From an uncultured bacterium (GTDB taxonomy: Bacteria > GCA-001730085), in assembly GCA_964565945.1 (NCBI GenBank), contig CAZMGY010000018.1, positions 30,001 to 62,000 on the forward strand: 32,000 nucleotides of DNA, read 5' to 3'. Positions 6,701 to 31,697 of the stretch are shown in pieces. Position numbers and translations under genes: made by a program. Every line of letters begins with the position of its first letter. Position 1 is the stretch's first letter. The notes below the pieces were generated by a model that made no database searches, had not been told where the DNA came from, and saw nothing but the letters and a program-made list of their open reading frames with translations.

Positions 6701-9700
6701 GCAACTGCTAAGCCTCTTTCGTTATAGGTATAGTCAGATTCAATACGCTTCGACTGGGCCACATAAGGTCGAGCCAAAATAGTGCTAATATCACTACTAC
6801 TTTTGTAAGCGCTGTAATCATTAGGTTGATCATTGATGTATTTGGTGTTAGTTTTTTTTTGAAGCATACCAGAGTTAAGTAAATCTGTGTCGAAAGCATA
6901 GTATTCCATGATATCTTGGTTTTTGCTCAAAACACCTTCTTTAAATTCGTATGTCGTACGCGAACGATTACGATCCAAGAAATCTTGCTCCACTTCGACA
7001 ATCTGCTGATTCGACCATTGTCCCGCCGTTTTGATTGTCCCAAAGCCAGTTGTTTTCATGACACGATCGTTTCTATCGATATAGCTTCGAAAAACAGCCC
7101 AGGCTTTATTAAAATCTTCTCGAGAAACATTTCCCTGAATACTTTGATAAGCTTCTTCTTTAATCATCCGTCTCAATGCATCTTTAAGGAAATCTTTGCG
7201 AGTCATGGTCCAGCTAATGATGCCATCGACATCCTGAATGATATTGTAGGATTTAACCTTGTTGTAAAGATTAGGAGCAATGGCATCTAAGGAGATTCTC
7301 GCGATACGTCCCTCTGTTTTATCGACATTCCAAATGGTTTTATGGCTAGCACTCACAGAACTCCATAGATTAATAATTTGGCTGGACAAAGCTTGATTAT
7401 CTGCCTTCCAGATCACATGATTTACCCCATCATTATCAATCAGATTGGCATCAATCCAAGGTTGAAGATCCAAGCCCGTAAAATCACTCCCTAAAAAGCG
7501 ATTGGTGTTGCGATAGACCTCTGTATCGGAACCATAAGTAACGATATTTTGAATTTTGCTACGATTGAAAGAATCAAAGGCTTTGATATGGGTCTCTTGA
7601 ACCGTTTTTTCCGTACCCAGGCCTTGTATGATATCTACTTTTCTTTGAACACGATCCATATGATCATACTCGTAAAAGTTTTCTGTTGTTCTCAGGGTCA
7701 CCATGGCCAGTGTTTCTCTATCGGTCGCTTTTTGAACGGATTTCTCGTAGAGTTTAAAATCATATTGATTGTAGGCCATCGTTTTATCTTCGACCGATAA
7801 AACATCAGACATATCATTGTACATACGTAGTTTTAAAGCCTTGACGCCCTCGTAAAGACCTTGATAACGGGGATTAAGATCTTTTTTGGCTTCTAAAGCC
7901 GTAATCATCGCATCGATAGTGGCTGCATTAACGGCGTCATTAAGATCGCCCTCTCCAGAATTGCCCTTATTAAGAGCCTCTTTAGCTTCAATAAAGTTTC
8001 TAGCCAATGATAAATCGAAAAATCCATCGTTCAATCGCTTGTTAGCAACGCCTAGATTTGCTTGGAAGGCCAATATAGCTTGATGAATAGCGTTATACTG
8101 ATTTTTGTCTGATTTTAAACTGGCCAAATGCGCCAATATTGCAGACATATTATCTATTGAAGTGATGGCATCGAGGTCTGCGTTATCCAAAACTTTATCA
8201 AAACGTTTGAGAATATCTTTGACATCAACAAAGTTTTCTGCCTGTGTGATTTTCTCAGCCACTTGCTGATAAGACAATTCGGGTGTTGCCAAAGGATCGT
8301 ATGTGTAGGTTCGTGTTTCGGTCACTTTGTCGAGATTATCAAAAGCGAGGTTCACAGTACGTGTATGACTGACCAATTGTCCCCTAGGTCCAGCTTGGTT
8401 AATATTGGTCTGATTAGCTAAGCTATCGCCAGGATTAGGGCGATAAGTTTTTTGAATTTCCTGAACTTGACGGTTGGCAAAAAAGGTATTGTCATACTGT
8501 TTTTCTGTGACTTGATATTTCCATGCCCCCTGGTAATCTTGGATCTTATCTTTGCGAACTTTCTCACGGTTAAAGACATCGTACAAGATGTGTGTAATTT
8601 TGGTTTGAGCTGTTCTTAAACGTGACCCTTCTGTTAATGGATAAGGCTCCATGGCTTGACGAGACGTTCTTTTCAGTTTAGGTTGATTATGTAAGTTATA
8701 AGCTAGATATTCTGTTCTTTCCCGTTCTTTCATAATCCATCTTTGAAAGCTTTGATCCCAACCATATTGATCAACTTCTTGTGTTTTAAAACGATCAAGA
8801 TTGTCATAGGTATTCGTGCTGACACGGCGATTATGTTTGTCCCAAAATCCTCTTACTTCGTTATAATGAAAAACATCAGTTGTTTCGATATAAACTCGGT
8901 CTTTAGGATTATCTCCATGTAAATATTGATTTTTTTGAATCAAACGACGACGCTCTTGGGACATTTGCAACAAATCATGACTATTATTCTTTTCGTATTC
9001 AATCGTTGTCACTTGAGTTGTTCGACCTAATTGATCAAACTGATAACGTTTGCGTGTTTTGCTGCGATCAACAACTAAACCAAGAACTTCGGAAATGGCT
9101 TGTCCTTTCCATTGTGTTTCGGTGTTAGCCATAGCGGCATCCTGAGCTGTCATTTTAGAAATAATGTTCTCTTTAACTACGTCAAAGATACTTTTTCCAA
9201 TATTATTGATAAGTGTGTTGGCCGGAATACCAAAGAAGCCTCTTAAGATGTTGGCCAAAGTTGAAGCGACAATCATTTTGAAGGATTGACCCTCAATGAA
9301 TCCGCGCACCCAGTTGTAAAAACCTGTTTTGAAAGCTTCCAACATATGAGACAATCCAAATTTTTTCTCACGCTGAGTTAACTTGCCTTGATGAGAGCGC
9401 ATAATAACATCGTAAAGCTTGGAATTTATATCCCCTTCGACAGCCACCTGATTTTGTTTTAAAACACGTAAACGACGCAAAACTTCTTTGCTCATATCAC
9501 TGGCATTGATGGTATTTTTACCTGATATTCTCTTGGCGCCATCCAATGTAAGAACACGGTCAAAATCTTCTTTGCGATATTGGGTGGTGACCAATGCATG
9601 CTCGACAGCTTTACCCATAGAATCATAGATGTAATCGTTGAATTCCTCTAGGGCCGTACGGTTTCCGTACATATCAAATTTTGAATTAAGCTTATGAGTC

Positions 9701-12700
9701 ACTTGTTCAAAAAGATTGTATTTAAAATCAAATTCCGAAGACGCCTCAACCAAGAATTTACCAGTCAATTCTCGTCCTTCCAAATCAAGCATCGCAGTCC
9801 CATCTTCATAGGCGCGTACACGGTAATTATAGATATATTGTTCACGACCTTTGAGACGGCCTGTTAGTTCATCATAGATGTTAGCACTCTCCTCTTCTTT
9901 GGTTAAACCTTGAATCGTATATCGTTTTTGCGCAACATCATAAAGAAAATTGGTTCCTGTTTGTGTCATTTTGTTGGACTGGCGTCCATCGGTATAATAG
10001 GTGTAATGCGTAGCTAAGGCACGTCGAGTAGCCATATTATTCGTATCGGGATACTCCCATCGACGATCACTTAAAAGACGACCATCTTCACGATACACAC
10101 GGTCAAAAGTTGTGGTTTGTTTTTTCGATAAATAATCAATTTCGTGACTATGACTAAGGCGCAGGTTATCGTTGTATCCCATAATGCGCTTGGTATTCTC
10201 GCTTTGAGAAAAGCCATTTAAGAGAGCGTCCTGATCGATCACGAGCGTATCACCATCCAGTCTTTTAGGCAACTTACCATTGAGAAGATTTGTGCTACGA
10301 TTTTTTTGATATTCTTGTTTGGTAACATGAATCGGCATACCACGGTAATCGAATTTCTCAAAATGTTGCACAGATAACCTTGTATTTCCTTTTAAATGAA
10401 TGGCAGAAAAAAACCCTTCCATAGCGGCCACACGTTTATGAGAATTAGAAATCCTGGCATAATCTAAGCTGGCAATGTTAAGTTCGTAAGGACCAATAAT
10501 CGAAACGAGGGCTTGGAATTTGTTTGCAATTAGCACCAAAGCCGTATTGGCATTTTTAATAGCGTCTTCAGGCACGGTTAAGGCCTCTTCATTGATCATT
10601 TTAGCTAAAACATTGGCTTCCTCCGTCGATAAAACGCCATTTTTGTTACGATCGGATAAGGCTAAACGAAATTCGGCTAACACATCGACCACTTGAGGTT
10701 GTTCTTTGACAATTCGTTGCATAATCTTAATTTTGTCGACATCAAGACTTTGTTGAACCGGAATACCAGTAGGATTGCTTGCCGACACAGGATTCAATTT
10801 ATTAATGATTAGCTCTAAAGTGATTTCGGGGCGAATGACAAAGCCTTGAGCAGCGCGATCTCTAAGGTTATAAATGTAATTACCAAACAAGCTATCCAAA
10901 AAGGCATTTTTGTCAGCGTTGCTCAAACCATCAAACGTCATCATCCATGCGCTAAAAGCCGCTTTCACACCCTGAACTTCAGGATAATCTTGACCAGTGA
11001 GAATACCACGAATATTTTGAAGATCTTGAGCTGTGGCATTATTAACTGCTTTAAGGGTTCTTTGCAGGTCTTTTAAACGAACAGCAAAGCGATCTAACTG
11101 CCCTTGCTTAGGATTGGTGTAATCAGAGCTAATCAAAAAGTACTTCTCAAGGATTTTTCGTGCTTTCTGAACTTTCCAGGTAACCACTTGCATATCGTCA
11201 TGAGAAGTTTTACCTAAATCTGTTCCTTGCGCTAAAAACTTTGTTTTATAAATATCTAAATAAGCACCCTCGTTCATAACCATTACGTATTCATTAACTT
11301 TTCTTTTAAAGCGATAGTCTAGGCTGTTTTTGCTGTAACTCAATGTTTTCCATAGAGCATCTTCGACATCATCCGCAAAGTCGAGCTTGGCTTTAAATTC
11401 TGCTTCAGTATCATCTAAAGCATCTGCACTCCAGGTGGTGTAGGGCAAATCCATATCATAAAAATCAATCAAACCAGCTGGAAGCAAGTGCTTAAGTGGA
11501 CTTACACCCACAGGTAATTCATTAGAGCCACTGTTCAAATTAAGACGAATTTCTTTAACACTATTATCGTAAAAAAATTCTTTGACTGTGGTTTCTGTCA
11601 ACGCGTAGTTGTTTTCTCCAAATCGATACTTGGATGTCGTTGCGGAGTCCCAAGTGACCTGACCATCATTGTCATATGTCCGTTGACTTTTGATTTGCGT
11701 TTCATCCTTGTAATACGCACCACCTTCTAAAGGCACATCCTTTAACTGACCCCATTTGTCATATTTTCTAGATAATGATGTCGACGAAGTAACAAGGCCG
11801 GTGTTGTCACCACCAGTTTGAGTTGCCTGGTCATAGTCTTCGTAATAAAAGGCATAGTAGAGCACCTTACCAGTTGTTCCTGTCACTTGACCCGCTTCGT
11901 TCTTAATAGCTTCTAGAAAAATACCATCCAATACGGTTCCATCTGCACGTTTGAGCCCAATGGTTTGATCTGGACGAATAAAATAACTGACTTGACCATC
12001 CTTAATCATATATTTGCCAATCTGTGCTGGGGGTTCTATCTCTGTCTTTGCTAAAATAGAACCCCCAGCCACACTAAAAGCGTCATCTAAGTGCAATACA
12101 ATGGGATTGCTGGCTTCATCTTTAAGAGTCAATTGATCAACATCAAACCGATCTTCACGAACCTCTAGAACATTGGAACCAGTGTTATCATAACGGTAGT
12201 TACGCAAAATATTATGGACTTTATTTTTTTTAGCATAATCAGTTTTTTCAACCTTAATAAACTTCTTGCCATAAGAATTAGTTCCTTTTTCCATGCTAGC
12301 CAACAAATTACCATTGGCATCATAGGCCCTTTCTTGAATAACATAGTTCTTATAAAAAATATTCATTTGACTCGATGTGCGACTTAAACCTAGAGCATTG
12401 CTATGCTCGGGATCACTTGAAAATTCTGGAATCGTAAAATCGAGCTTGTCTTTGTCGATAGCAAACCACATCACATTATCGGTGCGACTACCGTTATCCA
12501 CACGGTCTTCACGTTTTTTAATAAGGCGTCCATTTTGATCATATCCCATATTCCATGTATATTTGAGAGATACATTCCCTTTAGAATCAAAATTCTTGGT
12601 GTTTTCAGCAATTTTTTGTCCCAAACGGTTGTATTCGATACCTGAATAATGGGTTTGGCTAACCGCATCACCCTTATCAACAAAGTCATTGAAAGACACT

Positions 12701-15700
12701 AGTCGACCATCGCGATCATAAAGCATATCGTTGCGAATTAGGGATTGCGCTACACCCCCTACTTTTTCTTCTTTTTCGATCGAAATATTTTGCCCTAGTG
12801 TGTTATAAATCATTTTTTTCACGAAAGTAGAAAAAGACTTCGCAGAGCTATTGTATCCATTCTCACGGTAACTGGTGATACGTCCCAATAAATCGTACTG
12901 AGTATCTTTACGAATGGTTTCGATGCGAATATTAGGTGCCGAACTATCACTCACTAACTCAAAGTAACCAAGATTTTGTCCAGCTGTGTTGTAGTTAATA
13001 TTTGATCGTGAACTATAAATGGTTTTATTGAGTGGATTATTAAACGAATCGCGACCTTGCTCATAATTGACTTCGTTATAGGCTGTGTTGCGTCCTGATG
13101 AATCATAAGTTAAAGCTTGCCATATACGTGTTTTGTTCAAATCGGGTGCATCTGTCGAGCGTGTGATCTCTTCGAAGGATTGTGTGCGTCCAGCGACATC
13201 GTAGCGCATATTTTGGCGTTGTGTCACAGTTAGTTTTTCAAGCAACGAGGCATCTACTTTAAGGTATTTTTTGCTTGAGCGATCATAATCAAGATTTTGA
13301 CGAATAATGTTAAAAATACTTCCTTTATAATGCGCAAACGTATCAGTTAAAGTCATTTTTGTAAAATTCGAAAGCTCCTCAAAAGCATTAAGAACTTTTC
13401 GTTCACCATTAATGTAGCCATTGTTTTCTAATTCGGTCCAAAGCATTGCTTTTTGTGCGACTGTCAAATCAAGCGCATCAAAAACGGATGCATCAAGTTT
13501 ACCTTTAAATTCAGCGTTCAAATAGTTAAGATATTCGGTCACAACACTGCGTTGATTAGAAGAAATAGTTGCTTTTTGATGCTTGCTGATATCTTGATAA
13601 ACAAACTTAAGTCCGTCTTTATAAATAATACCTCCGTTAACAAGGTTTGTTAATTCTATTTTCGAGAATTTAAACAAATTGACCTCATATTGTTTAATAA
13701 TCACACTTTTTTGCTCAGAAACGTCCTGATAGGCCTCGACGCGTCCTAAAGCATCATAAGTCATGCCAGTTCTTAAGGTTAAAACATCTAAATCAGGCTT
13801 GTCGTCGCTGTTGGTACGCTCTCGATAGCCCGTTAGCTGTCCACCCCAGTTATAAATCATATCTGATCTTTGCACCAAAGTCCGTTGTTTAGGCGACTGC
13901 GAATTATACTGTTCTTCGATATAGGAACTATTCTGACCCAGGGCATTGTAGACCATGTTGCTACGAATATGGGTTTCTTTGCTATCAAACTCTAGACCAA
14001 CACCTAGTTTATGGTTCACATCAACGTATCCCAAGGTTTTGCTTTCTTCGTTGTAAATGATATTGATTCGCGTATTCATTTCTAAGATATAAGCATCATT
14101 GGCCACAAATTCAGGAACTTTTTGACCATAGGCATCACGAACAAAATCTCCTGAACTATGTGTTTTCTTGAAAAAGATATCTGGTCCAAGTTGAGAATGC
14201 CAACGTCCATAAACAATTTTGCGTGTCTCTGGATCCGCTGAATCATAGTAATAAACTGGATAAGATAGAGAATCTGTTCTTGTTGCATTGATGCTTGCCA
14301 TCGAACCATCAGCTAAGTAAAGCTGTGCACCCTTTTCATCCTTAAGGTTCAAAACTCCAAGAACTTCTTTCATAACAATATTATGATCAGTGTCTTTATA
14401 CAATTTAAGACCATTAATTACTTCGACCGTCAAATCTCTAGGATCAAACTCTGCTTGTCCAGACTCGCTGAATTCACCGTTATAAGTGAATAAATCTACA
14501 TCTGTGTCTAACAAATCGCCGTAAATAGCTTCTTTAAGCACATTGTTTTCGATGTAGTACAGATCCTCACTTTGATCATTCTTAAGAATCTGATCTTCAC
14601 GATAATAATCAAAATAGTAAGGCTGATTGCGATCATATTGATCTTCGCTATAGGTTTTGAACTCTCCCGTTTGCAAAGGGTTACCATCGGCATCAATATT
14701 GTAAGGATTGTTGTTGGTTTGATCTTGATACGAAGCCATCTGCCCCAATGAGTTATAGGTAACAAAACGTCTTTTTGTTTCTTTGTAGTTATTTAGCAAT
14801 CCTTTAATTTGATCTTTTTTATATTGAAATTTTTGGAACAACAGAACGTTCTGAATGTTAGCTGCCGACAATCTGCTTCCGCTATCGTTGATGTAAAGAT
14901 CCGACGCCATTAGCTTTTGACGTGTTAAAGGATCTGGAGAATCATAGATATGTTGAGAAAAAGATTGTGCAAAGCTTAATTTTTTTTGAACCGCATATAA
15001 TCCTTTGAGAATCTCTCCATCTTTGCCATAAAGAGTCTGCGCTTTGCCAAAAACATCATAAAGTTTTTGAGCTGGATCCCACATGTAATAACCTTCTTCT
15101 TCGGTCATAACACGCTCAAATGAGGATGAAGATGCAATAGCATCCATAATGGCCTGCTTCATTTCTTCCACTGATTGATAAGTTCCGTTTGGGTAGCTGT
15201 CCAAAAGTAATTGATTAAGGTCATAAAATACGCCATCAACTTTGATACGGCCCATTTTGAAAATCACACCTTGGCTCACTTGTGTTGTTTTGAGCTTAAT
15301 CCGATCTGTGATTTGGCCCAATTCATCTTCAATTTCAAGCACCTCACCCTTAATCAGTTTAGCTTTTTTCTCCGCCGTATAAGTATCCCAGTTGGCCGGA
15401 AGCTCATACAATTGTTCCACTTCATTCGTAAATTCACCCCCTTCGTGAATCAGATCATCATAGGCAATTTGTTGACCAAAACGGTTGTAACGTGTGTTAG
15501 TTCGCTCGGTTGTTGTTATCTGTTGAGTTTGATCGTTTTTAACAAACTGCACATAACCAAGAACATAGCCTTGTGAATCGTAAGTTGTACCCTTACGAAC
15601 AGTATGAGTGAGTTCGTTGATAGTCAAAGGCTTGCTCACTGTTTGTAGGTTTAAATTTTTACTAACACCGCCTCGCATAACTCTTAATGTTTTTTGCTCT

Positions 15701-18700
15701 AACAAAAGTTTTTTCTCATCTGGGGTTAAATCATCAAAGGAAAGAGAGCCATCTTCAGAAATGTTTTCGTAGTCATATAAGCTTTGCTGAACAGTACCAT
15801 CATCCGTTTTACGGTTGGTTTCGGTGTAAGAAACTTCTTGACCAAAACCGTTGTAACGAATCATTTGTTTTTCTTTACGCTGAATCGTTGCATCCACTTT
15901 GTTGTTCGAAATCTCGGTGAAGCTCTCAATTTGACCAAAAGAGTTATAGCTAACATTTTCACGGCGTGTAAAATTCTTTTCTTGAATTTTTTTCTTAATC
16001 GACTTACGAATATAGCCCATATAAACACTGCTTGTTTCGATATATTTATCAATGAACTTAACAATAACACCATCATTGGCAGGTTCTGAAGGATCCTTTT
16101 TAATCAAAAAGTCTAATTCTGAACCTATCGAAGCTTCGACAGAACTCGAAGCTGAAGCTAAAGATTGCAAACGGCTAACGGTGTTTTGATAACGAGTGAA
16201 TAATATATTCATTTCTTGATCACTAGCGAGTTCTCGACGTTTGTAGTTAGCTTCAATGCCTTTTAACTTTAGGTCTGGTTTTGCACCAAGCACTTCGGGA
16301 GAATCCACGGCTCCAATCCAATCGGTATGATGTTGGTTGATCGACTGAGCAAGTGTTCGAATATTATCGTTCAATTGCATTGAATCTAGGGACAGATTCA
16401 TCACGGACAATTCCTTGGCAAAATAATCTGCAATAGAATCCGAGCTAAGCTCCAAAATGGCTTTAGATTTTGTCAAACATTCTGTGATATCACCATCAAC
16501 CTTGCTAGACGACTCAGTGAGCAAACGGTTACGCTGTTGGTAAATCGAATCTGAACTCGGTTTATTCGATTCTGTGTAAGGCTCATAATTATTCGTTTCA
16601 TCATCGTCAGTCATGATGTACAGCTTAACAAAGTTATTGTGTGCGGTTGGCAACATGTCGGTGTAATCATCATTAACATAATTATGAACCTCCTTTTTAA
16701 TATTATTGGTAACATTTGTTTTAATAGCTTCGACAGCTGCACGAATCTTCATAGATGCAATGTATCTTTCCTGATCATTAGAAGCGCTTTGATGCGCATT
16801 CAAAAGACTTCTCCAATTATAAGTACCTGTCGATGCCCCAATGCTCAAGGTTCCATGATTTAAGGTCAGCACTGCTAATTGCGCATTGGTTAATGAAGTT
16901 AAATCAGCAATACTCACATGATCTAATTGATTAACAAGGGTTAAGCGATTAGCAGCCGTTGGTGATGCCAAATAGGCATTCACGCTGGCATTGAACTGCC
17001 CGCGGGTCACATTTTGATTTTGATCAATCGCATTAAGACCACTTTCGATAAGACCACTTCTGATACGTTGAGATTCTTCGGAATAAATGGCATTGAACAA
17101 GGATGTATCATCATAATTCTTGTTAGTATAAGTGCGATCGCCATTAAATCGTGACCAACCCGCCTTATCGATAATATTATTAAATGCGAATGTTCCTGCC
17201 CCTGCATCATCGTACTGTCTAAGACCAAAAAAGTCTCCACGTGTTTCCCAATAATCATAGGCATCTGAAAAATACTGATCGTTAACATGCGTCCTAATTC
17301 CGTTAACAATAGAACCCTGCCCCATTGAACCAAGAGTGTTGTTGGAGAGTGTATTATCAAAGGCAGTTTCGTAGTAAGTGCGATAGTCGGCCAAATCTAC
17401 ATTTCCCCGATTAATACGATCCTGAGCAGCATTACGAGCCCTGCTTATAAGGTCATAACGTTGAAGTTCCTCAGAGATAAAATTATTCACAATGGCAATG
17501 TTGGAAAAATTGTCCGCCACTTGAGTTGCTCCATAAGCTGATGCATGCTCCACTTGCTCAATAAAAGTATGAATATCATTGGCTTCAGGAGCAGCGCTCG
17601 TGTAATTGTAAAGGTTTTCTGTTACTCCAGCCTTTGTACTTGCACGTGATGCAGAAATATCCCCTTGAGGAGCAGGTGTAACAACCCGATCGGTGATCAA
17701 AGATCCCATAAGGGCTTCGAGGCTTTGATCTCTTGCTTGACCATCAGCTAAGTAGGAATCATTGGTTTTTACATTCATTTGATTTGTGATGAACTGATTC
17801 GTAACATCCCGAATGGCCGTAAATTTAGCACGCGCATTATTACGATTCGCAATCGCTGTATCCGCAGCTATTTTTTGTGATCCAACAAGTGCTTCATCGG
17901 CAGAAACACCTTTAACGGCCATTTCTTTCAGAAGACTCATATTGGCTTTGATCGATTCTATGATCAAACCAGCAAAATCACGTATTTGATTGGCCGCTGC
18001 ACGTCGAGATTGTTGCAAAGTGGTCGAACCTGAGTTATTGTCCATAATCGTTTGCGCAGCATCGTAAAGTCCTTTGTAGTCCACATAAGCATCGTTTTCT
18101 TCTTTGATTTTAAGAGCATTAATAATTCTTTGTTTCGATACACTGGCAATCGCTCGAGAAATATGAAAACCAGGTTTTGTTTGAAATGATGCAGGTCGAT
18201 TTCCATAAGGTGAAAAGGCAGGTACTTGAAAATCAGCAGGATTGGGTGTAGCGTAGTTGGGATCATAGATATCAAGAATGCTATCGGCTTGATTTGCAAA
18301 ATGAGTCGCAAATCCAGTTGCGTTTAAAACTCGTAAACGAGCAAGCTGAGTATCAATCACATCTTTCAAAGCTTTATCAGCATCTCCCGCATCCGCATTG
18401 TAATTATTCTGAATCAAAGGCTTGTAAGCAGGAATGGCTTTATCAATATTGTTAATGATCCAATCACTATGACCATTCATTGATTCTGTCACATCCATGA
18501 TGCCAGAGGTATGAAGTAAGACCTTCTTGCGAAATGCAGTTTGAATATCATCATAAGAATCGTTTTGCTCATCAAATGCCAGGATCATTAAAACGGCATT
18601 TTTTTTCTGAATATCATCAGCAGTAACAGCATCTTGATACATTTGACGCAAATTATAGGTTTGTGTATCTGATGCAAGTTTTTCTTGAAAAATAAAATGG

Positions 18701-21700
18701 GTTGGTAAATCAGACAGATTCGGACTTGTCGATGGATCGGCATCTTCGATGCTCACCATCGTGGCAGAACGGTCTAAATCCACAAGTGTAAGATTATTCA
18801 CTAAATTGCTTAAAAAAGATTTGTACTCGCCATCGGGAAGATCTGTGTAATTAACGTGTGCCCTTGTAAGATTGAAGTTATCCCTGTCAGGATCTTCCCC
18901 ATCCAAGTAAGCTCGTAAGAAGAGTTTCGCATGATTGATTAAATTAGAGGCATTCATATGAATATCTTGAACCCAAACCTCTTCCAAGTCAGTAATATTG
19001 TCATCGGGAATCCCAGAGCGAACCTCTTGTGAAATAATTTTGACAATGTCTTGCGCTTCTCGACGAACTAAGGCGGCTTGGACTTGTTTTTTGGCCTCAC
19101 CATAGCTCAAATTTGGTACTGAATCATAGTCAATGGTTCCTTCGAAAGCTTGTGCTGCATTGTATTGATCGACCGCAAATCCACGTAAAAGTGTATCGCG
19201 AATATTAAAATTTGGTGTGAAATAGTTGATTTGAATATTGTAATCATTAACGGGTAGTCCTCCATCAATAAATGCATTAAACTCTGTATTTCCTACGCTT
19301 TCATAGGCACGCGTTTGATAGTTGACTGTTTCGAACAAGCTGTCATTGAACAAGTTTGTCGTTCTCTCATAGCTTCGCGCATAATCACCTGCAACCAGTG
19401 TGTCTAGATCGGTAGGAAAAAGATTTTGATTGCTAGATCTCAACGTCGCAGTCACATTTTGTGTTGGATCGTTAAAGACCCTAATAGCCGCATCTTTGAA
19501 AGATTGTAAAAACACATTGGTTGCAGCCATCGCGTCAGCCTTAACCCCAGCATCCATGCCTTCGAACATATTGAAAACATCATGCAAATTAGCTCCTGCA
19601 GCAATTCGGTTGAAGGAGTGATCGCGCAATCTATCTGTTTGGGTGCGAATAGCGCTCATTTGCTCCACTTGAGAATCCATGTTGGCATGCATATCAGCAT
19701 ATTTTTTAAAAAAAGTGGCAATCATTTGTTCATAGTAACCAGCCAACACCTCCATGCGTTTAATGCCATACGAATACACATCATGCTTAATACGATAGGC
19801 AACATAATCCGCTGTCGGAGGAGAAGCACTCACTGCAGACAAAGCAGATAAAGCCGCTGTCATTTCTGTGGACGCATTTTGAAGAGTTGTGTTCGTTGCG
19901 TTGGTTTTATCGTAATCATTAGCATTCAATGTTGCAAACACATCTGGTGTAAAATATTCATAAACAGCGTTAGATGGAGTGGATAAATCTAGGTTTTTAA
20001 CTTTTTTAATGGTCGGATTAGCCCATTTTTGCAATTGAATGATCAACGCTGTGTTTTGAGAACGCGCAGAAAATGTTACACCAGCCGCCTTATTACGCAA
20101 TAAATCCATCTCTTCGTCTAACAAACGATCAATATCTGCAAAAAGACTCCCCATAGGCTCAAGCAGTTCGTACTTCATCATTTGCACCTTATGCTCTTCG
20201 ACCAAACGGCTTAAACCTGTTTGCTGATTGATAATGTCTTGAATTTGATCATTACTGATTTGATTAATCCGGCTTATGTATTGATTATTTTCGCTTTGAA
20301 CTGTGTGTAACGCATCGATATGTTGCTGCAATTCATATTGACGCTCAGCATAACGGTTTCTTTTGGTTTTTTCAGCATGATACTTACTCATAATGATTTG
20401 TAAGTTTTCACGCATATTATTAGATAAAGATGCCGAAATGGTGCGTTCAAAATGAAAGGCTTTATAGTAATGGATACCCTTAACTTCCTCCGTCGCAGTG
20501 ACCATATCGCAGATGACTTTGGATCCCTGAAGCAATTTGTATTTTTGGACAGCCGAAAAGGAATCTATCAAACCACCTACTCGCCAAAAATTATTCCATT
20601 CGGCTTGCGTCATCGACGTTGGCACCTCAAATTGAGCCTTCCAATCATTGCGCAAACCAATAAATGTCTGCGAATCCGTCAATTGACCATGTTCCGCGAG
20701 ACCAAAATATTCTTCCCAACGCTCTCTTTCTCCACTGTTAGCTGAGTCTTTATCGGGCAATAAAAAGGTATTGAGAGACACTTCTGATTTAGGTGCCAGC
20801 TGAAAGCTGCCTTGGACTGGAATTTGAACACGTGCAGCTCGGTCTCTTAATTCGGGTAAAGCAACACTGTGTGTTTGATCCCATAGATTAAGGATTTTGG
20901 TTTTGTCACTAACCGAATAGGCAAACTCTAGCAACTTAGATGCCAAAATGGTTCGTGTGGCTATATTCCACACAATATGGGTATCCTTATTCGGATCAAT
21001 TTTGATTAGGTTGTGGACAATCATTTGCTCGATCGTTGCATTCGATAACAAATACGCGCTGCCTAACTCTATACGTGTCATTTCACGAGCTGATTTTCCA
21101 AGAAGGATCAATTGTTCCTCGGATGTTAACGTATTGTAACCAAACGAAGGACTTAACCAAAAAGCCCTCCACTTGCTTTGATAACTAACCTCTTCTCCGT
21201 CTTCATGCACAACAAATTCGGCTTCAGTATCCCATCCTTCGGGAGCCTCAAATAAGCCTTCGAGTTCGTTACCAAACAGTTTTTCAGTGATTTCAATCTT
21301 GGAAACAATTGCATTGATACGGTCGTTGATAAGAACTTTTTCTTCGAAGAGTTCGGCAATTCGCTCATCATCAACAGGCGATTCTAAGGTATTAAGCGTT
21401 AGATTGAGATTGGCCAAGGCACGACGTTCACTGGCTAGGTTTTCTTCCAAGCTCTTCTTATAGTTATTAATAACATTTTTCATAAGAGAGTTGGAAGGAA
21501 TCGCAGATTTGTCAGGATTTTCTTCATTCTTGGCCTGAACGATGTTGTAAATCACTTCGCGCATCACATTGCGTGTTTCTTCGCTTAATTCACCCGATTC
21601 TTCCAATAATTCGGAAATAATACGATACTCAGAACCCGAAGGAATCTCGATTTTCGTTTTTGTGATTACTTTTTCCTTTTGGTTATTCTTAAGTACCGCA

Positions 21701-24700
21701 AAAATAACTGCTTTTTGATCAGCTCTTTCATCAAGGGTAAATTCAACGGCTTCTTTCATTTGCAAAAATTTAGTTAACAATAAACCCTGAGCTAACAAAT
21801 AACCTTTGGCCTCCAATTCATCCCAAAGCTGTTGTGAATTAAGTCCTAAAGCATCTAAGTCATTCAAACCAATCACATCATTTTTTTTATTTTTCAAAAA
21901 GTTATAAATTTCTTCAGTATGCTCCGAGAAAGGTGCTTTAAGGTTAAGATCTTGATGGCGCAACAAACGGTTCATTTTATCGGTGTAAACCCCAACATTT
22001 TTGATGTAATTTTTTGCCACTAAATCAGCCCACATGGCTTTTTTCTCAGCATTTGTCCCCGTAACGGTCGAAAAGTCCTCCATCGAGATCAAGCCCCGAG
22101 ACATCGCCAACACATCCGATTTTTTAAAGCGATTCATCATCGAAGACGAGGCCACAGAAAATTTGATTGTTTCTTCTCCCAGAACTACAGAGCCCCCACT
22201 CAACACAAGTGCTTGCTGTTCTTCGTTAAGCTGGCTGAAACCATAGTGATCACTATTCCAAAAAGCATCCCACTTGGAACGATAATCCACGTCGGCGCCA
22301 TCTTCATTCACGGTATAAGACGTTTCCCAACCTGTTGGAATGCGGAAAAATGTTCCTAACTCTTCACTTGTGCTACCAATTTTGTAATCTTCTTGATCAT
22401 ACTCGAGTTCTTGGCCAAAGCTGTTATAAGCGATGTTATAACGAACCGTAATCTCTTTCATATTAGGAGATGCGTTTTTAACCCGAGATTCCTGATACGT
22501 CAAAAGCTTACCAAACTTATTGTACTGAATGTTTGTCCGTTCAGAGTGTGTCACGTCATCCACATCAAAGGCAGTTTCGTAATCAACAACAAAGTCATCT
22601 TGGATCGCATTGATCATGCCCGTGGTAAAATCTTTATCATCAATAAGACTGTCTTGATTGAGGTCGAAGCGAGCCCATAACGCAGGATTCACATTAGCTA
22701 GAAACTCATAAAGCATTAATTTCTTAATCAAGCTCAAGTCATAATCAAATTCATTCAACGTTCTAGCTCCAAATAGTCTGCGGAAACGAACTTCTCCCAA
22801 AGCTTGCTTCATATCTTTAACCGAAATAATTTCTTTGTCTGGAAAGTATCTTCCGTACTCCACGGCGCCTAATGCCTCAATAGCTTGCGAGCGTGTGACT
22901 TCTGTGGCAAATCCAAACAAACGGGTGTAATGGTTGTAGCCAAGATCTTGAGTTACTTTTTGAGCAAGCTTAACAAAATCATCAACCGAAAAGGTCGAAG
23001 CCGTTTCAAGCTTTTCGATGATCGATAACAGATAATTTTTTAGGGATTGGCCAGTTAAAGAATACTTTTGAATCGTTTGACCTTGTTTTTGTGATTTTTC
23101 AATGTATTGTTTTTCGCGACCAAAAACATCATAATAAATTCGTTTTTTCTCTTTGATGGTGATCGAATCTGGCGATGATGTGCTCACACTGCTCTCTTTA
23201 GTGTATCTTTCCTGGCCTAGTTTATTATAGATCGTGTCGTTACGATGGACAATATCAGTCACATCAATCCGGGCTTCGCTCAATACCGACTTGGATTTGA
23301 TCTCGACCACAGCATCTCCCTTCTCATCTTTTAAACCAGTGCGAATGGTTGTATTATCATCAGCTGTAATGGCCTTTAAAAGGGCATTCAAATCTTTTAT
23401 ATCTGATTCCTTAATGGTCAAAAGACCATCTTTCTCCAAAAAGAAATGTTGCTCTGGTATCAACTGGGTTTTGACATCTTGAGTTGGAGTTTTGTAACGC
23501 ATAACTTGAGCTTGTCCAATACGACGCGAAGCAATTGAACGTTTTTTAAGTAGTCCCGTTGTGTCATAGTGCATATCTCTCACATAATCGATGGTCAATA
23601 AATCAGGCTTACTGAGATTTTTTTTGGTTTCGGTATAACCGATAAGCTGAGACAAATCATTATAGGTGGCTCCAATCCGTGTATTAAATTCTCGTGTGTC
23701 AATCACCTCTTGCAACTGAATACCTTTGCGAGAGGCTAAAACACCCCCCGCAGCAAGAGAATCCACAAAACTGACGCGTGCCTGTTGAGAATTACTCCAT
23801 AGCTGAACAACAAAATCAATGTTTTTCTCGCTGTAATCAAACTGATTCAGTTTAGAGCGCAATTCGCTTTCTGATGTCACATTCCAATGAAAAAGGTCCT
23901 TATTGCTGGGATCGCTAACAAGAACCTGTTGTTCAACCGAATTGAGTGATGCTAGCAAGCTTGCATCCTCAAATGAAGCTCTTCCAATTTGACTTCCTAA
24001 CAATTCAGTGAAGCCTGTGGCCTGAGCATGAGGCATTTGATCAAGCTCATTCTTGGTATAATAACGTAAGTTTCCAGTAGCTTTAGCCACAACAGACTTA
24101 ACCTGATCACCATCGACATAAAGCGCTTGATCTTGAGCGCTCATTTCGTTCCACTCCTCTTGAGTCATATAGAAAGATGTAAGACCTGTATGGTCATCAT
24201 TAATATCTACTTTGTGAAGCAATTGCAACAGAGAAACTTTTTGGGGTGTACCATAGGCCTTTTTCTTCTCAAAATCCAAATTCGCCCACTCTGACTCCGA
24301 GAAAAAATCAAAAGTTCCTGGAGAATCGTTTTTTTCACTCATCACCAAAACGCTGCCATTTTGCAAAATTCGTTGAAACGATGAATCTTGATCATTGACT
24401 TTTTCAAGTTCATCTCTTAAGGAATTATAAAAGATTTCTGTAACTTGATAGCGATCAAAATAAGTCGTTATATCTAAAGAATTTCTAGCATAAGGCAAAG
24501 CTGAACCTTCAACGCGAATAAGCTGATGAGCCGTCCCTGCAATAGTAACACTTTGCCCAAACAAAAGCCGTTCTTTATCTTCAGATGCTAAACCATCAAA
24601 CACACCACCTTTGATCCAAAAGGTACTCCAGTTACCTTGAACCCTCGATGCGCGCATATCGAAGGCCGCCTGCCACGCACTACGATCGCGATCAAAGCCT

Positions 24701-27700
24701 GTTTTCAAATCGTTAACAGCGACTTGATTATAGTTGGCAAAACCAAAAAAGCGCTTTGTTTGCCCATGCTTTGTTTTCGATTCCAAAAATCCTTTTTCTT
24801 GGCCCTCTCCTGTGTAAAAAATCGATTTACGCTCGACATGTGTTTCAACCCCTTGGTTATCTGTTACATCTTCGACATAGCTTTCAACTTGAACATTGGA
24901 GTTATAAGTCGTTTTTCGACGTAAAATTGTGGTCGTATCGTTGATCTCGATGCTATCATTCACATAACCTAAAGTGAACGCTCCCAAATCATAATCGTCA
25001 AAAAAAGAGCCTATGTTCCTCACATAGGTGTTCAGCAAGTCTCCATCATTGGGGAAAAAAGTTTCGTTTTGAGCCACGGTGGCAATATTATCTGCATTAT
25101 CTGCTAAAGCAGCCAATACAGCAACTCTTTGCGTTCCGCTCAAATTTGTATCAATCAGATTTTTGAACCAGCTTAAGGCCTGTGAACGGATATCCACAGC
25201 TTCGTCATGATAAATTTTAGCAATATATTCCTGAGTTAACAGGGCTTTGAGCCATGCATTATTTTCAACAATTTCCCTATTAACGCGTTCAACAGTGCTG
25301 ACACCCTTTTTTTGGACTGTTTGACGATACGAATTCTGGCGGTCAAATTTTTCATATGTGATATCTGTCATTACTGTGATTGTCGTTAAATCGGGCTGAG
25401 CTGTTGAGCGTTTAATTTCATCATAGGCATTAATATTGCCCGTTTCGTTGTATTGAGTATTGGTGCGCAATAATCCTTCTTGAATGTCTTGCAACACCTT
25501 ATTATCCAACTGATCATAGGCCAATCGATGCGTAACATCGAGATACTCAAACGTTTGACCAAGACGATTGTACTCAATAGCACTTCTCGAAACACGTTCT
25601 GATTTTTCAAGGCTCTGAGTTTGCCCTTTAATCGTTTGTGAGCCTTTAACATTTTCGAATTGGGTGTAACCCGTCATTTGCTCAAATTGATTATAAGTGA
25701 TATGGCTACGTGTTTTGCTGGTTTCAGAGCTACCTTTAGCTGCTATTTTGCTACTTTCACGATAAGCGACTTCTTGATTCAAATCATTACGTACAATCGA
25801 AAAGCGGGATGTGCTGTTAATGTTGTTCAGTACATTTGTTTGTTGATAGCTCACCCCTGCGCTAGTCAATAAGTCCAAATCATTTTGATCGATCACCTCA
25901 TCTTTGTTTAAATCAAAATGTTTATCATAAGCGCGACGTTGCTCAATCATGTCTTTGATCATCATTTCGGATTCATAATAGTTGAAGTTCATATCAGTCA
26001 GAGAGCTTCCCAGCTCAACGTCACGTTCATCATAAGAAAACTTCAAACCATCAAGATAAACACCCTCCCAGGTTTTTAGCTTAACACTTGTTCCCAAAGC
26101 AACACCATCAGAAGTATCTACTTTTAAATTCGCCAAATTTTTAGGATCAAAATTAAACGTTGGATTTGGCACATAAACTTTCTTAATAGCTTCCCAGACA
26201 CGATCTTTGTCACTACGCCGCATCGAGCCAAGAGCCTCATAAAATGAGTCGCGATCATTGCCCAACTTGGTCACGGTCACTTGCGTAGGGCTCTCTTGAT
26301 CTTCAACAACCAATCCTTGATCCAACAACACTTGCAAGCGATTGCCTAAAAGATCTTTACTGATACGTCCGTCATTATTGATTGCGCGAATAATCTGATT
26401 CATGTCGGTCAATTCCTCACGAGACGTGCTTGAATCAGAGGTCAGAGTATAAACCTGGGTTACATTTGATTCTTCATCCCAAATTCTATTGTCGGTGTAC
26501 TTACGTTCCCAACGATTAATGGTATCTACAGCACCTGGAACACTGTGTAAATTGGTATCTTCAACAAAGCTTTTCAGACGAAATTGATCATCGTATTTCA
26601 TATCATAGCGAAGGGTTCGGCTTTTTTTATCAGGGCTGTCCGAGCGTTGAGTTGTGTCTTCGTAAGACAAAATAAGACCCGTCGAAACTTGCTGAATTTT
26701 AGCATGGGCATCAATGTAATCAACCTTTTTGTAAGTAATATTTTTTCTTTCGCTGATTTGACGCGAACGCCGCTCACCGCCTAAAACATTTAAGCTAAAA
26801 ACCATATTTTCCGTGATTGAACCAGGAAGAACATTTTGTGCACCCAAATTTCCATAAGGACCGTTAACACCAAAGAAGAACTCTAGGATTAAATCATTGA
26901 CGGCTTGTTGGCTCACAGCATCTGGCTCGACCGCCTCACGTTCTTTAAGCGCACGATAAATCTTTTGAGCCAGTTTTTGACGTGGAGCATTAATATCATC
27001 TTTAGCCATTAGGAAATCACTGCTCTTAAATACGTCTTGCCCTGATTTGATCTGATTAATCATGGTAACAGTTTCATTTTGATCGAAGTTTTTTGTTAAA
27101 TGTTCTCCCAAAAAGATTTTATGCGTTAAGGCAATTTTAGCATTGACTGGAATCGTATCGATCTTTACGTCGCGACCATTAAGGGAACCAATGGCTACTC
27201 CGTCCACGTCGGGTGTTTGTGATACCTGAGAATTCTCTCCAAAAAAGTAATCAAGAATTTTATTATTTACAGAATGAACAGTGATTTCACCATTGTTGCG
27301 GGGATCCCCATCTTCGAGATTTACCAAATCGTTGTAAATGTCACTAGCCAAAACCTTAAGCGCGTGATCTTTATCCTTAAGATAATAAAAATCATATTGT
27401 CCAAAGACCTTAGTACTATTAAGCAATGATACAGCTAATTGTTGCAGAGCAGCACCTTCATAAGCTACATATTCATCCGCTTCCCCCATTTTTTCTGTGA
27501 TTTCTTCGTAAGACAACATCCTCCCATCGGCATCATAGTTTCCAGACCAATCGACAATCGTATCAATCGCTTGCTGACCATTGTTATCATATTTGCGGGT
27601 GATTTTATGCTCATTGATCCGTAAGCTACGAACTTTTTCGTATTCGGTTTCAATCACAGTGATTTTCTTAGGAAAGCTTACATCAATTCCCTTAGAATGA

Positions 27701-30700
27701 TTGTCATGTTCCATATCAAACTCAGCTTCTTTGGAGAAGATCTTGTTGCCGCGAGAATTATATTGGCCTGACCAGCGAAAAGTTTTGTTCTCTTTAAGCT
27801 CACCTGTCGATTTATAAGTAATGTCCCCTCGATAAAATTCTTTTTCCTTGCGATCTTTTTTCTTTGCACCTTCAAGATAGGTGTAAGCACCTTGCCACTT
27901 TTCATAACGTTCACCATTCACCGTGTTCATACCAGTCTCATAAGAACCTAGGGTTTTTCCATCACTGTTATAAGGGTATTTTGTCACAATTAAATCATCA
28001 CGACTCAAACCACTAGGTCGAAGAATAGCTAAATTAACTGTGCTGAGATCAAAATCTTTGGTGATTAAAATGGCTTGATTATTACTATCTAGAATTGGCT
28101 TAATAATACCCTCACGATTTTTGTATTCTAGGATGTTGGAAGCATTCCATTTGATGTCGACAAATTCCTTGCCTTCGTTCTTTTTGTAGGATTTATAGCT
28201 TAATTCTAGGTCATTATTGTCGTAAGAAATGTCACGACGTTTCTCAACAGAGGTTCCTTGAATTTGACCAGAAATCAATTCACGATCATATTCCAATGAA
28301 CGATCAGCTGCATCATACTTCATATTCTTCATTCTCGTGATGTTCAATACCCCATCAGTCACGGTGCGTTCGGTGTAAGATTCTGTTCTTTTCAAAGTAT
28401 CGTATTTCATATCAAAACGATGCGTCTGGGTGCTGTGGCCATTAGAGATGTTTTTCGAGAAATATTCTTTGCGATTGTCATCATGATCATAATAAATTGC
28501 CTGCATTTCCATGTTGTACTCAGATCCTTCAGCATTCACGCCCTCTTCTTGATAGGCATATAGGCGCTTTTTTTTGTCATAAACCATGTTTGTTTTTTTG
28601 CTATAGGTTTCATTCACAATCGGATGCTCAATTCCTTTGGTCTCTTTTATTTTAACGATGCTTCCAGTCAAACGTTGGTCAGCGTTATAACCAAGATTTG
28701 ACGTTTCTGTCATAGATTCGCTGTATGATGCAACTTTACTCTTGTCTTTCACATCACGGTGGGTTACTTTGCGATAATCGGTGTAATTAAATAACTGCCC
28801 TTTAACCAAACGCACATCGGACTCTAAGTGACCCTCTTTAATCAAGTTTTCGTTACTATAAGAATCTAGCTCACTCGCATCGCGGTAAGATTCAGAAACC
28901 ATGTCTTTGATCAATTCACCGCGCTGACCTTCACCTTTAATAATCCAACTTTTACTCTGTTCCGTTTCGGTGTTGTACTTAAGCAAGTTAAAATCCCTTT
29001 CCAATTCACCATAAACAGAACCTCCCCAAGTTTGATAGCTAACAGATTCGACACCCACTTTATGTTTTTCCAAGTCTTTGGCCGTTAAAACATAACCCAA
29101 ATCATTCAAAGCATCGAAATAAAGGTCACTTTTGTTCGTCAAAAAATCGTTATAATCGGCTAAATCACTTGCAATATCGTAGGATGGCAACTGCTGATGA
29201 AGTCCCTGCGATGTCCAGTAAACAAGCAACTCTTCAGGACTTTGCACGATCGAGTTCCAAATATCTTCCGTAACCTTAAGTTCGGCTTTTTGATAAAGAC
29301 GACTTTTATACTCCATAAATTTTTCATTTAAAAATCTTTCGATATCTACATTAAAATAATCACGAATGAATTTATTCGACATTTTGCTCATATTGGCATT
29401 GCCATTGCGCACAATGCTCAAGAGATCGACATCGGGATAACTCTTATCCAACGACGTTTCTAAGCCTGAAAAACGAAGTAAATTATTCCACAACTCATCT
29501 TTAACGATAGTGATTTCGGAATCATCGCCTTGCAAATCATTTTGCAAAATAAGATGGTCATTCAATACCTTGGTTAACCCTGCCTTAAAATTAGTTAAGG
29601 CTTTTATCATTAACTGTTTTTCTTCACGATAGTTGTCGTAACGCAAAGCTGTCATTTTATCTGTGATTGTTTGGCTATAGTTACGAAATGTCTCGGCATC
29701 ATCACCAGATAAGGCTGGCCACTGGGATGTCTCACCAAACACAAACTCGATAATTTCGTTAGCATCTTCGAAATTGACATTCGGTGCATCGGCATCGATC
29801 CGTTGACTTTCAATCACGGGCTTGGCCAATTCTTGTAAAGCAAGGTCAACGTACTCCATATACGAGTTATCTCCTTTATCTCTGTTATTGATAAAAAGAC
29901 CTGTATTTTTAAAAATACGCGTTAAAATATCAATGTCGGAGGCACTTAAAACACCTTTGATTTCAAGATAGGATAGCTTTGAATCCACATCCTTAAGGCT
30001 ATTCCATACTTTATCTGTCTTGGATCGAATAAGACTTAAAAGATTGTCTTGCGGATTGTAGAACTTATTATGATGCTTGATTGTTTTTTTGTTGTACGAA
30101 CGAATATTATCGCGATAATCGTAAGTAGCATCATAATAAATCGATTCTTCATCCGTTAGCTCATTATTCTCATCAATTTCATACTTATACACTTTATATT
30201 TGGTTATATTCCCATTAACATACTCTGTTTCGAAGCTTGCTGTCTCCAAGATGCGGAATAATCCTCGACGATAAACAGCAAATTCAGGAGCTACTTTAAA
30301 ATAACTATAACCCTCTAAAGATTTAAATTTTTCTGTGATAACTCCAGCTTCTGTGAGATAATTGCGTTTGATCAAATCATTCCAAATATCTTTGTTTTTG
30401 TAAGGGATGTGAGATAAATCAATAACGTCTTGACGATTATGTGGATCCCAAAGTCCCCATTTTTCGACTTTGGTGGCTTCTTGATTGCTATATGTTGTTT
30501 TCCTGTAAGACAATACATCACCCTTTTGAGTGTAAGCAATTTGCTTGTCATAACTCATCGCGGCGTCCCAAATTATCAAGGTTTCCTCGCCATCACTAGC
30601 TTTCGTATGTTCACGGTAAGACACAAGCTTGTCATTGGCTTCCGTTTTACTTTCAAAAAAGTAATTCGCTTCCCAGGTAATATCTTCAACTTTACCTGAA

Positions 30701-31692: not shown

Positions 31693-31697
31693 CTCCT
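31693..31697 (-). promoter_or_regulatory. Shine-Dalgarno (AGGAG) of the giant gene
   Basis: Minus strand reads TTTAGGAGAGGGCTGTG: AGGAG, a 6-nt spacer, then the GTG start at 31686. Confidence 0.75.

Follow-up and report, generated by a model that had tools for sequence, protein, structure and literature searches.

What kind of protein carries, in the middle of its chain, a block of about 1,475 residues that neither repeats itself nor matches a described family? The question is raised by a 32,000-nucleotide stretch of contig CAZMGY010000018.1 from an uncultured bacterium (assembly GCA_964565945.1, positions 30,001 to 62,000), which is called the window here. A single giant open reading frame (ORF) runs through the window on the minus strand. 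The block in question, the core, is located between modules with a W-x-x-F-W motif on its upstream side and tandem YD-like repeats on its downstream side. An initial annotation, made from the letters of the window, had placed a repeat-free helical core of a YD protein at positions 16100-20450, corresponding to amino acids (aa) 3748-5198 of the giant protein. The position was right: the last W-x-x-F-W motif lies at aa 3699 and the next YD-like unit begins at aa 5245. The peptide quoted in that annotation is found at aa 3945, and the coding strand, which had not been stated, is the minus strand. The comparisons below show a conserved, non-repetitive and probably folded block that evolves under purifying selection like folded domains do.

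The evidence for constraint came from an ortholog. A degenerate DNA pattern representing a tandem pair of repeat units was tried on the window and on a repeat-bearing Logan contig (L002) and was then run over the GTDB species genomes. Comparison of the giant protein with the 78 loci found by the pattern (tblastn) yielded one true ortholog, on MDLB01000105.1 (64.9 kb) of 'PVC group bacterium (ex Bugula neritina AB1) isolate AB1-3'. Two pieces of this contig, 8 kb each, aligned to aa 1158-3819 (L020, 42.9% identity) and aa 3833-6489 (L063, 43.7% identity). They appear contiguous, by frame continuity and adjoining matches. Concatenated, they are open for 5,333 aa and collinear with the window protein at 43% identity, opposite window positions 12200-28200. 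The alignment has 5,367 columns with 21 gap runs and 43 gap positions. Such strict length conservation is unusual for a protein this large and divergent. The core shares 36% identical amino acids with its ortholog, compared to 46% for the flanks, and has 10 short gap runs covering 18 positions.

Conservation in the core depends on the type of residue. The best-kept residues are Tyr (fraction 0.64), Trp (0.57), Phe and Leu (0.56 each), Gly (0.50) and Pro (0.46). The least kept are Gln (0.18), Thr (0.19), Ala (0.21), Asn (0.28) and Ser (0.30). Conserved blocks include IKR.E.L.GY.EQMIATF.KKY, KW.NP.IKKVKNL.LSTP..VYEYFT, VTP..QGDIS and RG.VDL.DYR, as well as NNTLG, W.TRGDFFGL..Y, ASMKIRA and YTES..PSSD.IY. 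Because gaps are few and the aromatic residues, Leu, Gly and Pro are the best conserved, the core appears folded and constrained. The pattern argues for a folded domain, its hydrophobic interior conserved and its surface variable, and against a disordered linker. From matching descriptions, the GenBank isolate AB1-3 is taken to be the AB1_div bin obtained from the bryozoan. This bin has 1.91 Mb, 34.7% GC and 96% completeness; it was placed in the candidate division NPL-UPA2 of the PVC superphylum and represents a host-associated bacterium that is most abundant in ovicells (PMC5041132).

The core is the longest repeat-free stretch of the giant ORF. Its limits were set at aa 3736-5210 because the last W-x-x-F-W module ends just before it and the first YD-like unit follows downstream. 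Self-BLAST of the core, within itself and against the rest of the protein, gave no match at E < 10. A hidden Markov model (HMM) of the 32-aa flank repeat had zero matches between aa 3110 and 5240. Profile-profile comparisons were performed with hhalign, using profiles of two rows each (window protein and AB1-3 ortholog). Any pair involving one of six core tiles reached at most 2.6% probability, and the core tiles against the YD-like arrays at most 1%, whereas the eleven best flank-flank pairs reached 71-98%. As these comparisons link the flank tiles to each other and no core tile to anything, the core does not consist of divergent YD repeats. All three methods bear out the repeat-free character claimed in the initial annotation. 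The annotation had also described a change to a composition rich in Asn, Gln, Ala, Asp, Ser and Thr, which is correct in part. Ala (10.5% versus 5.4% in the rest of the protein) and Asn (8.9% versus 6.9%) are enriched, and Lys (4.1% versus 7.5%) and Glu (4.6% versus 6.8%) are depleted; the content of Gln, Asp, Ser and Thr barely differs. The net charge of the core is -57.

Database searches provided no family for the core. Pfam had no match of any kind for the core or its ortholog, including at a permissive E ≤ 10, and a second scan of both cores in tiles of ~500 aa gave nothing. No match was obtained in NCBIfam, PHROGs and PADLOC, in the PDB with phmmer and a two-sequence profile, or in plasmids and phages with tblastn. 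In a word-indexed database of 5.8 billion proteins, neither the core nor the N-terminal 3,716 aa of the giant protein had a match. The C-terminal 5,000 aa had one match in this database, the repeat-only protein P0002. The catalytic motifs HExxH, GxSxG, P-loop and Cys-based were all absent from the positions conserved between the two cores. The view that this large region has neither a catalytic signature nor a characterised family was therefore confirmed, and both explanations that would have made it ordinary, homology to a known family and divergent YD repeats, found no support.

A HMMER search of 1.84 billion representative proteins with aa 3748-4947 of the core gave one fragment of 95 aa (P0001, E = 1.6e-6). 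Its contig, L001, aligned to the core with 34% identity over 85 aa (tblastn). The two-sequence core HMM recognised three pieces on it, at profile positions 528-589, 567-677 and 692-788. By these matches, L001 represents a third lineage with the core. The contig is apparently palindromic inside, with identical peptides on both strands, and is probably an assembly chimera. Peptide-pattern scans found no relative when genome, viral and metagenome contigs were searched with the single core protein, or when metagenome and viral contigs were searched with the alignment of the two cores. Such scans depend on near-exact 7-8-mers, and they overlooked the AB1-3 ortholog. The status of an orphan is weaker than the empty searches imply, because the protein libraries and the peptide-pattern finder all missed the one true ortholog; more orthologs may exist. 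Calls of 'no homolog' for giant, contig-truncated ORFs are weak evidence, and claims of orphans among such proteins deserve caution.

Structural information on the core is of low confidence. A single-sequence AlphaFold2 model of aa 3900-5099 had a mean predicted local distance difference test (pLDDT) score of 33 and is unreliable. In this model, 48% of the residues were helical and 52% were not, and no strand of three or more residues was present. Pro and Gly together made up 3.6% of the predicted helices and 9.5% of the residues elsewhere. A Foldseek search with this model, one of the checks proposed in the initial annotation, had a best match at E = 1.9, which is meaningless given the model confidence. 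Averaged over the core, the hydrophobicity spectrum has its maximum at a period of 3.8 residues, with a z-score of 2.9 for the alpha band against shuffled sequences, compared to 1.5 for the arrays. Chou-Fasman propensities and a single-window hydrophobic moment did not discriminate between regions. No hydrophobic segment was detected in the core, the maximum 19-residue Kyte-Doolittle mean being 1.2. The description as 'helix-like' agrees with the modelled helix content and the periodicity, although this support is weak.

The core is likely mostly helical, with one or more conserved non-helical subdomains predicted around aa 4760-4830. The densest cluster of conserved blocks is located there (aa 4761-4830). 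It is rich in Gly and aromatic residues, was not predicted to be helical in the modelled tile and may form a small non-helical subdomain. One of its blocks, W-x-TRGDFFGL (window 17212-17250, aa 4815-4827), contains an RGD tripeptide that is kept in the animal-associated ortholog. With a chance expectation of ~0.2 per core, this tripeptide is suggestive only. The conserved block overlapping the peptide quoted in the initial annotation sits within helix 60-111 of the modelled tile, whose mean pLDDT is 33.

The host ORF was defined by a frame scan. The frame is open from position 31695 to position 1, over 10,565 codons. It contains just 10 stops, all within the first 101 codons, compared to 407-1,220 stops in the other five frames. 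Because this one minus-strand frame spans the window from 31695 to its first position, no ORF of at least 150 aa lies fully inside the window. A GTG at 31686 was taken as the start; an AGGAG is located 6 nt upstream. The part of the protein that is present has 10,562 aa, a mass of ~1.2 MDa, an isoelectric point (pI) of 5.4 and 3 Cys. The full protein has at least 10,562 aa, since the C-terminus lies beyond the low end of the window. The N-terminus reads M-ILDIFAGPLKKYVRVVSCLTVQLFIATSMDVSLAFA, followed by QQ. It harbours the sole hydrophobic segment of the whole ORF with a 19-residue Kyte-Doolittle mean above 1.6; apart from this signal-like segment, no transmembrane segment was found in the 10,562 aa by the Kyte-Doolittle scan. 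The segment is also kept in two distant N-terminal homologs (L017 and L018), and its sequence pattern is that of a putative Sec signal peptide. Neighbouring genes at the loci of the N-terminal homologs, an AcrB-family pump and GroEL, were uninformative.

The polypeptide is a mosaic of four YD-like arrays, four W-x-x-F-W modules and several unique stretches. The repeat unit of the flanks has 32 aa and the consensus R....Y[ND]..G[QR]...Y.E, with YN..GQ more frequent than YD..GR. The strict pattern matched 21 times, compared to 0.7 matches expected from shuffled sequences. The repeat HMM detected 23 significant units in the giant protein and 0 in shuffled sequence; early repeat seeds taken from aa 207-336 had failed to propagate. 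The units cluster in the four arrays (Table 1), and two isolated units are located at aa 275 and aa 1385. W-x-x-F-W motifs occur exactly four times, at aa 2355, 3141, 3508 and 3699, and all four are conserved in the AB1-3 ortholog. They belong to two pairs of homologous, small and helical modules of ~70 aa: type A (aa 2314-2383 and 3661-3727, self-BLAST E = 2e-7) and type B (aa 3112-3165 and 3477-3532, E = 1e-10). The modules are nested in the order A-YD array-B ... B-A directly upstream of the core (window 20488-24765, aa 2310-3735). Every module is followed by a helix-like tail, L-[ST]-x-E-Q-x-x-x-L-x-G, and array 4 has a similar tail within its helical insertion, at aa ~6090.

The nature of the arrays was assessed with an AlphaFold2 model of array 4, which was based on a 5-row alignment of window rows and the whole P0002. 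The overall pLDDT was 44.6, with 50-68 in the repeat part. The low-confidence model has runs of ~10-residue strands and a helical insertion of ~90 residues. It thus contains strands where the core model has none, the array being modelled with five rows and the core as a single sequence. The eight best Foldseek matches were all YD or Rhs shells and include teneurin-3, Tse15, TcdB2-TccC3, SGS1 and the Yersinia BC complex. The top four had E-values of 1.5e-5 to 2.9e-4, yet TM-scores of at most 0.1, for a model of low confidence.

Family searches with the flanks gave no corresponding result. Pfam had nothing at E ≤ 0.1 for 5,000-aa pieces of the giant protein. On tiles of up to 1,000 aa, RHS_repeat (PF05593, gathering score 22 bits) had a best E-value of 0.44-0.64, which is not significant. 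NCBIfam, which includes the YD repeat TIGR01643, detected no YD or Rhs family in the giant protein, and phmmer searches of the PDB with both flanks had no match. A profile of the 21 units retrieved teneurin (E = 0.17) and Tse15 (E = 0.19) at the level of chance matches to coronavirus spikes. The Rhs-core motif PxxxxDPxGL is absent from the 10,565 window residues, the 5,333-aa ortholog piece and P0002; the C-terminus of the window protein lies outside the window. The flanks appear to work like YD hairpin arrays; the host is a YD protein only in a loose sense, and these results do not place it in the Rhs/YD family. They are probably distant cousins of YD/Rhs repeats that the models of Pfam and NCBIfam fail to detect.

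These results bear on the name given to the protein. 'YD protein' is only partly right. It suits the 32-aa hairpin unit and the low-confidence array model, which is nearest to teneurin, Rhs and Tc structures; the name lacks a significant RHS_repeat match and any NCBIfam YD or Rhs family. 'Rhs-like scaffold' goes too far for ~23 detectable units in four short arrays and two isolated positions, with no PxxxxDPxGL in the residues present. The initial annotation had considered so large an internal domain unusual, as payloads of Rhs proteins are small C-terminal toxins. This comparison is misplaced because the host is not demonstrably an Rhs/YD protein; it used the wrong reference class.

A comparison with known systems supports another class. 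Rhs/YD proteins, that is, TcB-TcC such as TcdB2-TccC3, T6SS Rhs effectors such as Tse15, teneurins and the mosquito SGS1, have tandem beta-hairpin units whose signature, R....Y[D/N]..G[R/Q]...Y.E, recurs in the predicted hairpin units of the flanks. The window protein differs by short, interrupted arrays, a 32-aa unit, the missing PxxxxDPxGL in the residues present and a core that stands outside the repeat system. TcA of the Tc toxins might be seen as an analogue, being likewise a very large, mainly helical block tied to a YD shell. The core shares no sequence or profile similarity with TcA and has no hydrophobic channel-tip segment; it is a cis-fused, mid-chain segment, whereas TcA is a separate pentameric subunit.

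The giant proteins of Omnitrophota and other PVC bacteria resemble the window protein in size (>10,000 aa), in coming from a PVC-group bacterium with a small, low-GC genome and in their large unannotated tracts. For this class, antiparallel beta-helix tubules of an Rhs-like type, with helices interspersed on the exterior, have been described (West-Roberts et al., 10.1101/2023.11.21.568195). The low-confidence model of array 4, with hairpins and a helical insert, resembles these tubules. Kilobase-sized unannotated regions are common in giant PVC and Omnitrophota-like proteins (10.1101/2023.11.21.568195; 10.64898/2026.06.07.730766), and one survey counted, among its proteins of at least 10,000 aa, 15% as Pfam-dark and 8.6% as having only a signal peptide (10.64898/2026.06.07.730766). 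Secreted giants of Omnitrophota have been interpreted as attachment or cell-wall-attack proteins; the giants typically carry many transmembrane helices and often divergent SecA-like DEAD domains (10.1101/2023.11.21.568195). In contrast, the window protein has no SecA or DEAD match and no transmembrane helix in 10,562 aa, its C-terminal part being outside the window. The Omnitrophota loci match the repeat units only, and no sequence relation to the core was found. The proper reference class is that of giant, largely Pfam-dark secreted proteins of PVC/Omnitrophota-type bacteria. As judged by its sequence, the core is a new domain, or several, within this known kind of giant 'dark' protein.

The preferred reading sees the core as the folded, non-enzymatic head or hub of an extracellular contact protein. 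As a whole it is the leading explanation, held tentatively and just short of probable. Its descriptive part is highly likely; its functional part, an extracellular binding or structural head, is possible and distinctly less certain. The core would be a folded, mostly alpha-helical block of several subdomains, at least one of them conserved and non-helical (aa 4760-4830). It would leave the cell as part of the whole chain, flanked on each side by a pair of rigid beta-hairpin arrays. With the YD-like arrays and W modules as a rigid scaffold, the core would be the specialised head or hub that binds a partner surface or molecule of a host or prey. Roles as cargo, pore or spacer are ranked below this binding head. 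Several points weigh against it. Helicity and the division into subdomains come from weak predictors and a low-confidence model. The binding role was assigned by exclusion and is fragile, with no positive sign of binding. For the window protein and the ortholog alike, the C-terminus and the gene neighbourhood are beyond the sequence covered. Two full sequences and one fragment leave structural and catalytic conserved positions inseparable. The orphan status is in part a consequence of the way databases store giant, contig-truncated ORFs.

Enzymes of an undescribed fold, for example for the degradation or modification of glycans or peptidoglycan, would fit the proposals for giant proteins of predatory Omnitrophota, and catalytic modules embedded in giant proteins have precedent (10.1101/2023.11.21.568195; 10.64898/2026.06.07.730766). 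The sharp blocks rich in Asp, Glu, Arg, Tyr and Trp (W-x-TRGDFFGL, RG[ND]VDL-x-DYR, YTES-x-[KR]PSSD-x-IY and QGDIS) and the region around aa 4760-4830, which is not predicted to be helical, are consistent with catalysis. An enzymatic core is nevertheless unlikely, as no enzyme-family profile matched even at E ≤ 10 and none of the classical motifs is conserved; an active site is not definable from two sequences. A passive spacer or stalk, whose role would be length and rigidity, is improbable as well. The first ~150 core residues (aa 3760-3900) read like a coiled coil, Ala is enriched, long helices are predicted, and the extreme conservation of overall protein length, with 21 gap runs in 5,367 columns, would fit a ruler-like structure. 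Heptad- or solenoid-type internal repeats, as in a coiled coil or irregular alpha-solenoid, were not found by BLAST or profile-profile comparison. Half of the modelled tile (52%) was not predicted to be helical, and the conserved blocks rich in Gly, aromatic residues and Asp look globular.

The core could also be an apparatus for membrane insertion or translocation, a cis-fused functional analogue of the TcA shell and channel or of alpha-pore toxins. The load that it delivers would come from the YD-like arrays or the unseen C-terminus. Paired long helices (481-532/536-573, 658-694/699-740 and 1074-1124/1148-1181 of the model), the amphipathic period of ~3.8 residues and the structural likeness of the flanks to Tc and Rhs shells in Foldseek, again with a low-confidence model, point in this direction. 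So does the polymorphic-toxin-like end of P0002, with a non-repeat domain and a small overlapping ORF. These helices stem from the model with a pLDDT of 33, and the core is strongly acidic. No TcA, pore-toxin or other Pfam family was found at permissive thresholds, and there was no PDB match. The absence of any hydrophobic or transmembrane-like stretch disfavours the pore role suggested in the initial annotation, at least in its classical form, and the translocation apparatus is considered quite unlikely. A helical machine for attacking or entering another cell, placed in cis between YD-like shell segments, is a still more doubtful proposal. It would be a single-chain counterpart of the split logic of Tc toxins, a helical translocator and a YD container, with folds without described relatives, and would serve small-genome PVC-type bacteria on or in animals or other microbes.

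Internal cargo, another role suggested in the initial annotation, would mean that the flanking arrays enclose the core in a YD cocoon, like those of Tc and Rhs toxins. Arrays on either side of the core, with a model nearest to Rhs, Tc and teneurin shells, invite this idea. Tc and Rhs cocoons enclose roughly 30 kDa of largely unfolded toxin. The core, with 165 kDa, is too large for known cocoons, and its conservation of the hydrophobic-core type implies a folded state. Each array is short, with about 320-495 aa, and the residues present contain neither an Rhs-core nor an aspartyl autoprotease motif. A role as cargo is very improbable. Least credible is a core of very divergent YD repeats, disordered low-complexity linker or non-coding sequence. 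In its favour, Asn, Ala and Ser are fairly abundant and the AlphaFold2 confidence is very low. The repeat HMM and hhalign connect the flank arrays and nothing in the core, the control array was modelled as strands and the core shows none, and the gap-poor ortholog alignment preferentially keeps Phe, Tyr, Leu, Trp, Gly and Pro. Non-coding sequence is at odds with a frame that is open in the window and in the ortholog.

If the core is a folded module of 165 kDa without relatives in Pfam and the PDB, it is a large addition to the dark matter of proteins. Insertions and deletions are nearly absent between its versions in two highly divergent bacteria, of which one belongs to a PVC lineage associated with a bryozoan. 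Its structure would tell what megadalton secreted proteins do: attachment, attack or scaffolding.

Table 1. Features of the giant ORF in the window, ordered from the N-terminus; positions refer to the window and residues to the giant protein.
Feature	Window positions	Residues (aa)	Strand	Remarks and evidence
Giant ORF	1..31686		minus	GTG start 31686-31684; runs past the low end of the window; frame scan
Signal-peptide-like N-terminal segment	31573..31641		minus	..KKYVR-VVSCLTVQLFIATSMDVSLAFA, followed by QQ; Kyte-Doolittle 19-residue scan
YD-like array 1	24763..25725	1990-2310	minus	Regular expression, repeat HMM; hhalign 80-94% to other arrays
W-x-x-F-W module, type A (NWSTFWIKGG)	24523..24765	2310-2390	minus	Self-BLAST, motif list, hhalign 96%
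YD-like array 2	22363..23667	2676-3110	minus	Regular expression, repeat HMM, hhalign
W-x-x-F-W module, type B (SKWDAFWNS)	22183..22380	3105-3170	minus	Self-BLAST, hhalign 97.8%
W-x-x-F-W module, type B, second copy (SKWRAFWLS)	21073..21285	3470-3540	minus	Self-BLAST, motif list
Last W-x-x-F-W module, type A (EWNNFWRVGG)	20488..20730	3655-3735	minus	Upstream boundary of the core
Core	16063..20487	3736-5210	minus	1,475 aa, 165 kDa, pI 4.9; non-repetitive, no family match
Peptide quoted in the initial annotation	19690..19860	3945-4001	minus	Overlaps a strongly conserved block: IKRMEVLAGYYEQMIATFFKKYA versus IKRFEILSGYHEQMIATFLKKYS
Part of the core in a third lineage	18088..18870	about 4275-4535	minus	Pieces on a JGI 3300042717 contig (P0001/L001), 1,089 bp
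Densest cluster of conserved core blocks	17203..17412	4761-4830	minus	RGNVDLADYR, NNTLG, W-x-TRGDFFGL-xx-Y
YD-like array 3	14713..15960	5245-5660	minus	Downstream boundary of the core; regular expression, repeat HMM, hhalign
YD-like array 4	12493..13980	5905-6400	minus	With helical insertion of ~140 aa; AlphaFold2 and Foldseek

Other relatives share the repeats only. P0002, from a Logan assembly, is a complete ORF of 4,871 aa that matches the repeat arrays only. Its C-terminus is a non-repeat domain of ~450 aa with DHSQGA, a possible GxSxG-like lipase motif (L002:13333-15430, Logan SRR26046407), for which Pfam and PDB searches gave nothing. An overlapping ORF of 203 aa follows P0002 in L002, a layout like that of polymorphic toxin and immunity genes. 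The 32-aa unit in the form R....YN..GQ...Y.E was found 5-22 times per 8-kb block in metagenome-assembled genomes of Elusimicrobiota, FCPU426, Omnitrophota and the PVC group (loci including L037, L080, L053, L057, L052, L009, L005 and L056). Eight unit-rich relatives with 10-22 units each had no match to Pfam RHS_repeat. From its sequence, the unit looks like an undescribed YD-like repeat family. This family spans genomes of all four groups, and the current Pfam and NCBIfam models are blind to its members.

The AB1-3 genome harbours a second giant gene, on a contig of ~70 kb (MDLB01000104.1), whose 8-kb block L056 is fully open. L056 is a paralog of the array region with 27% identity. AB1-3 appears to spend a considerable part of its genome, tens of kilobases, on genes for giant proteins. 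The window protein is acidic along its whole length, with a net charge of -237 over 10,562 residues. In the C-terminal part of the window (1940-6432, aa 8421-9917), it contains another repeat with a period of ~190-280 aa and 23-29% identity between copies, which is unrelated to the 32-aa unit.

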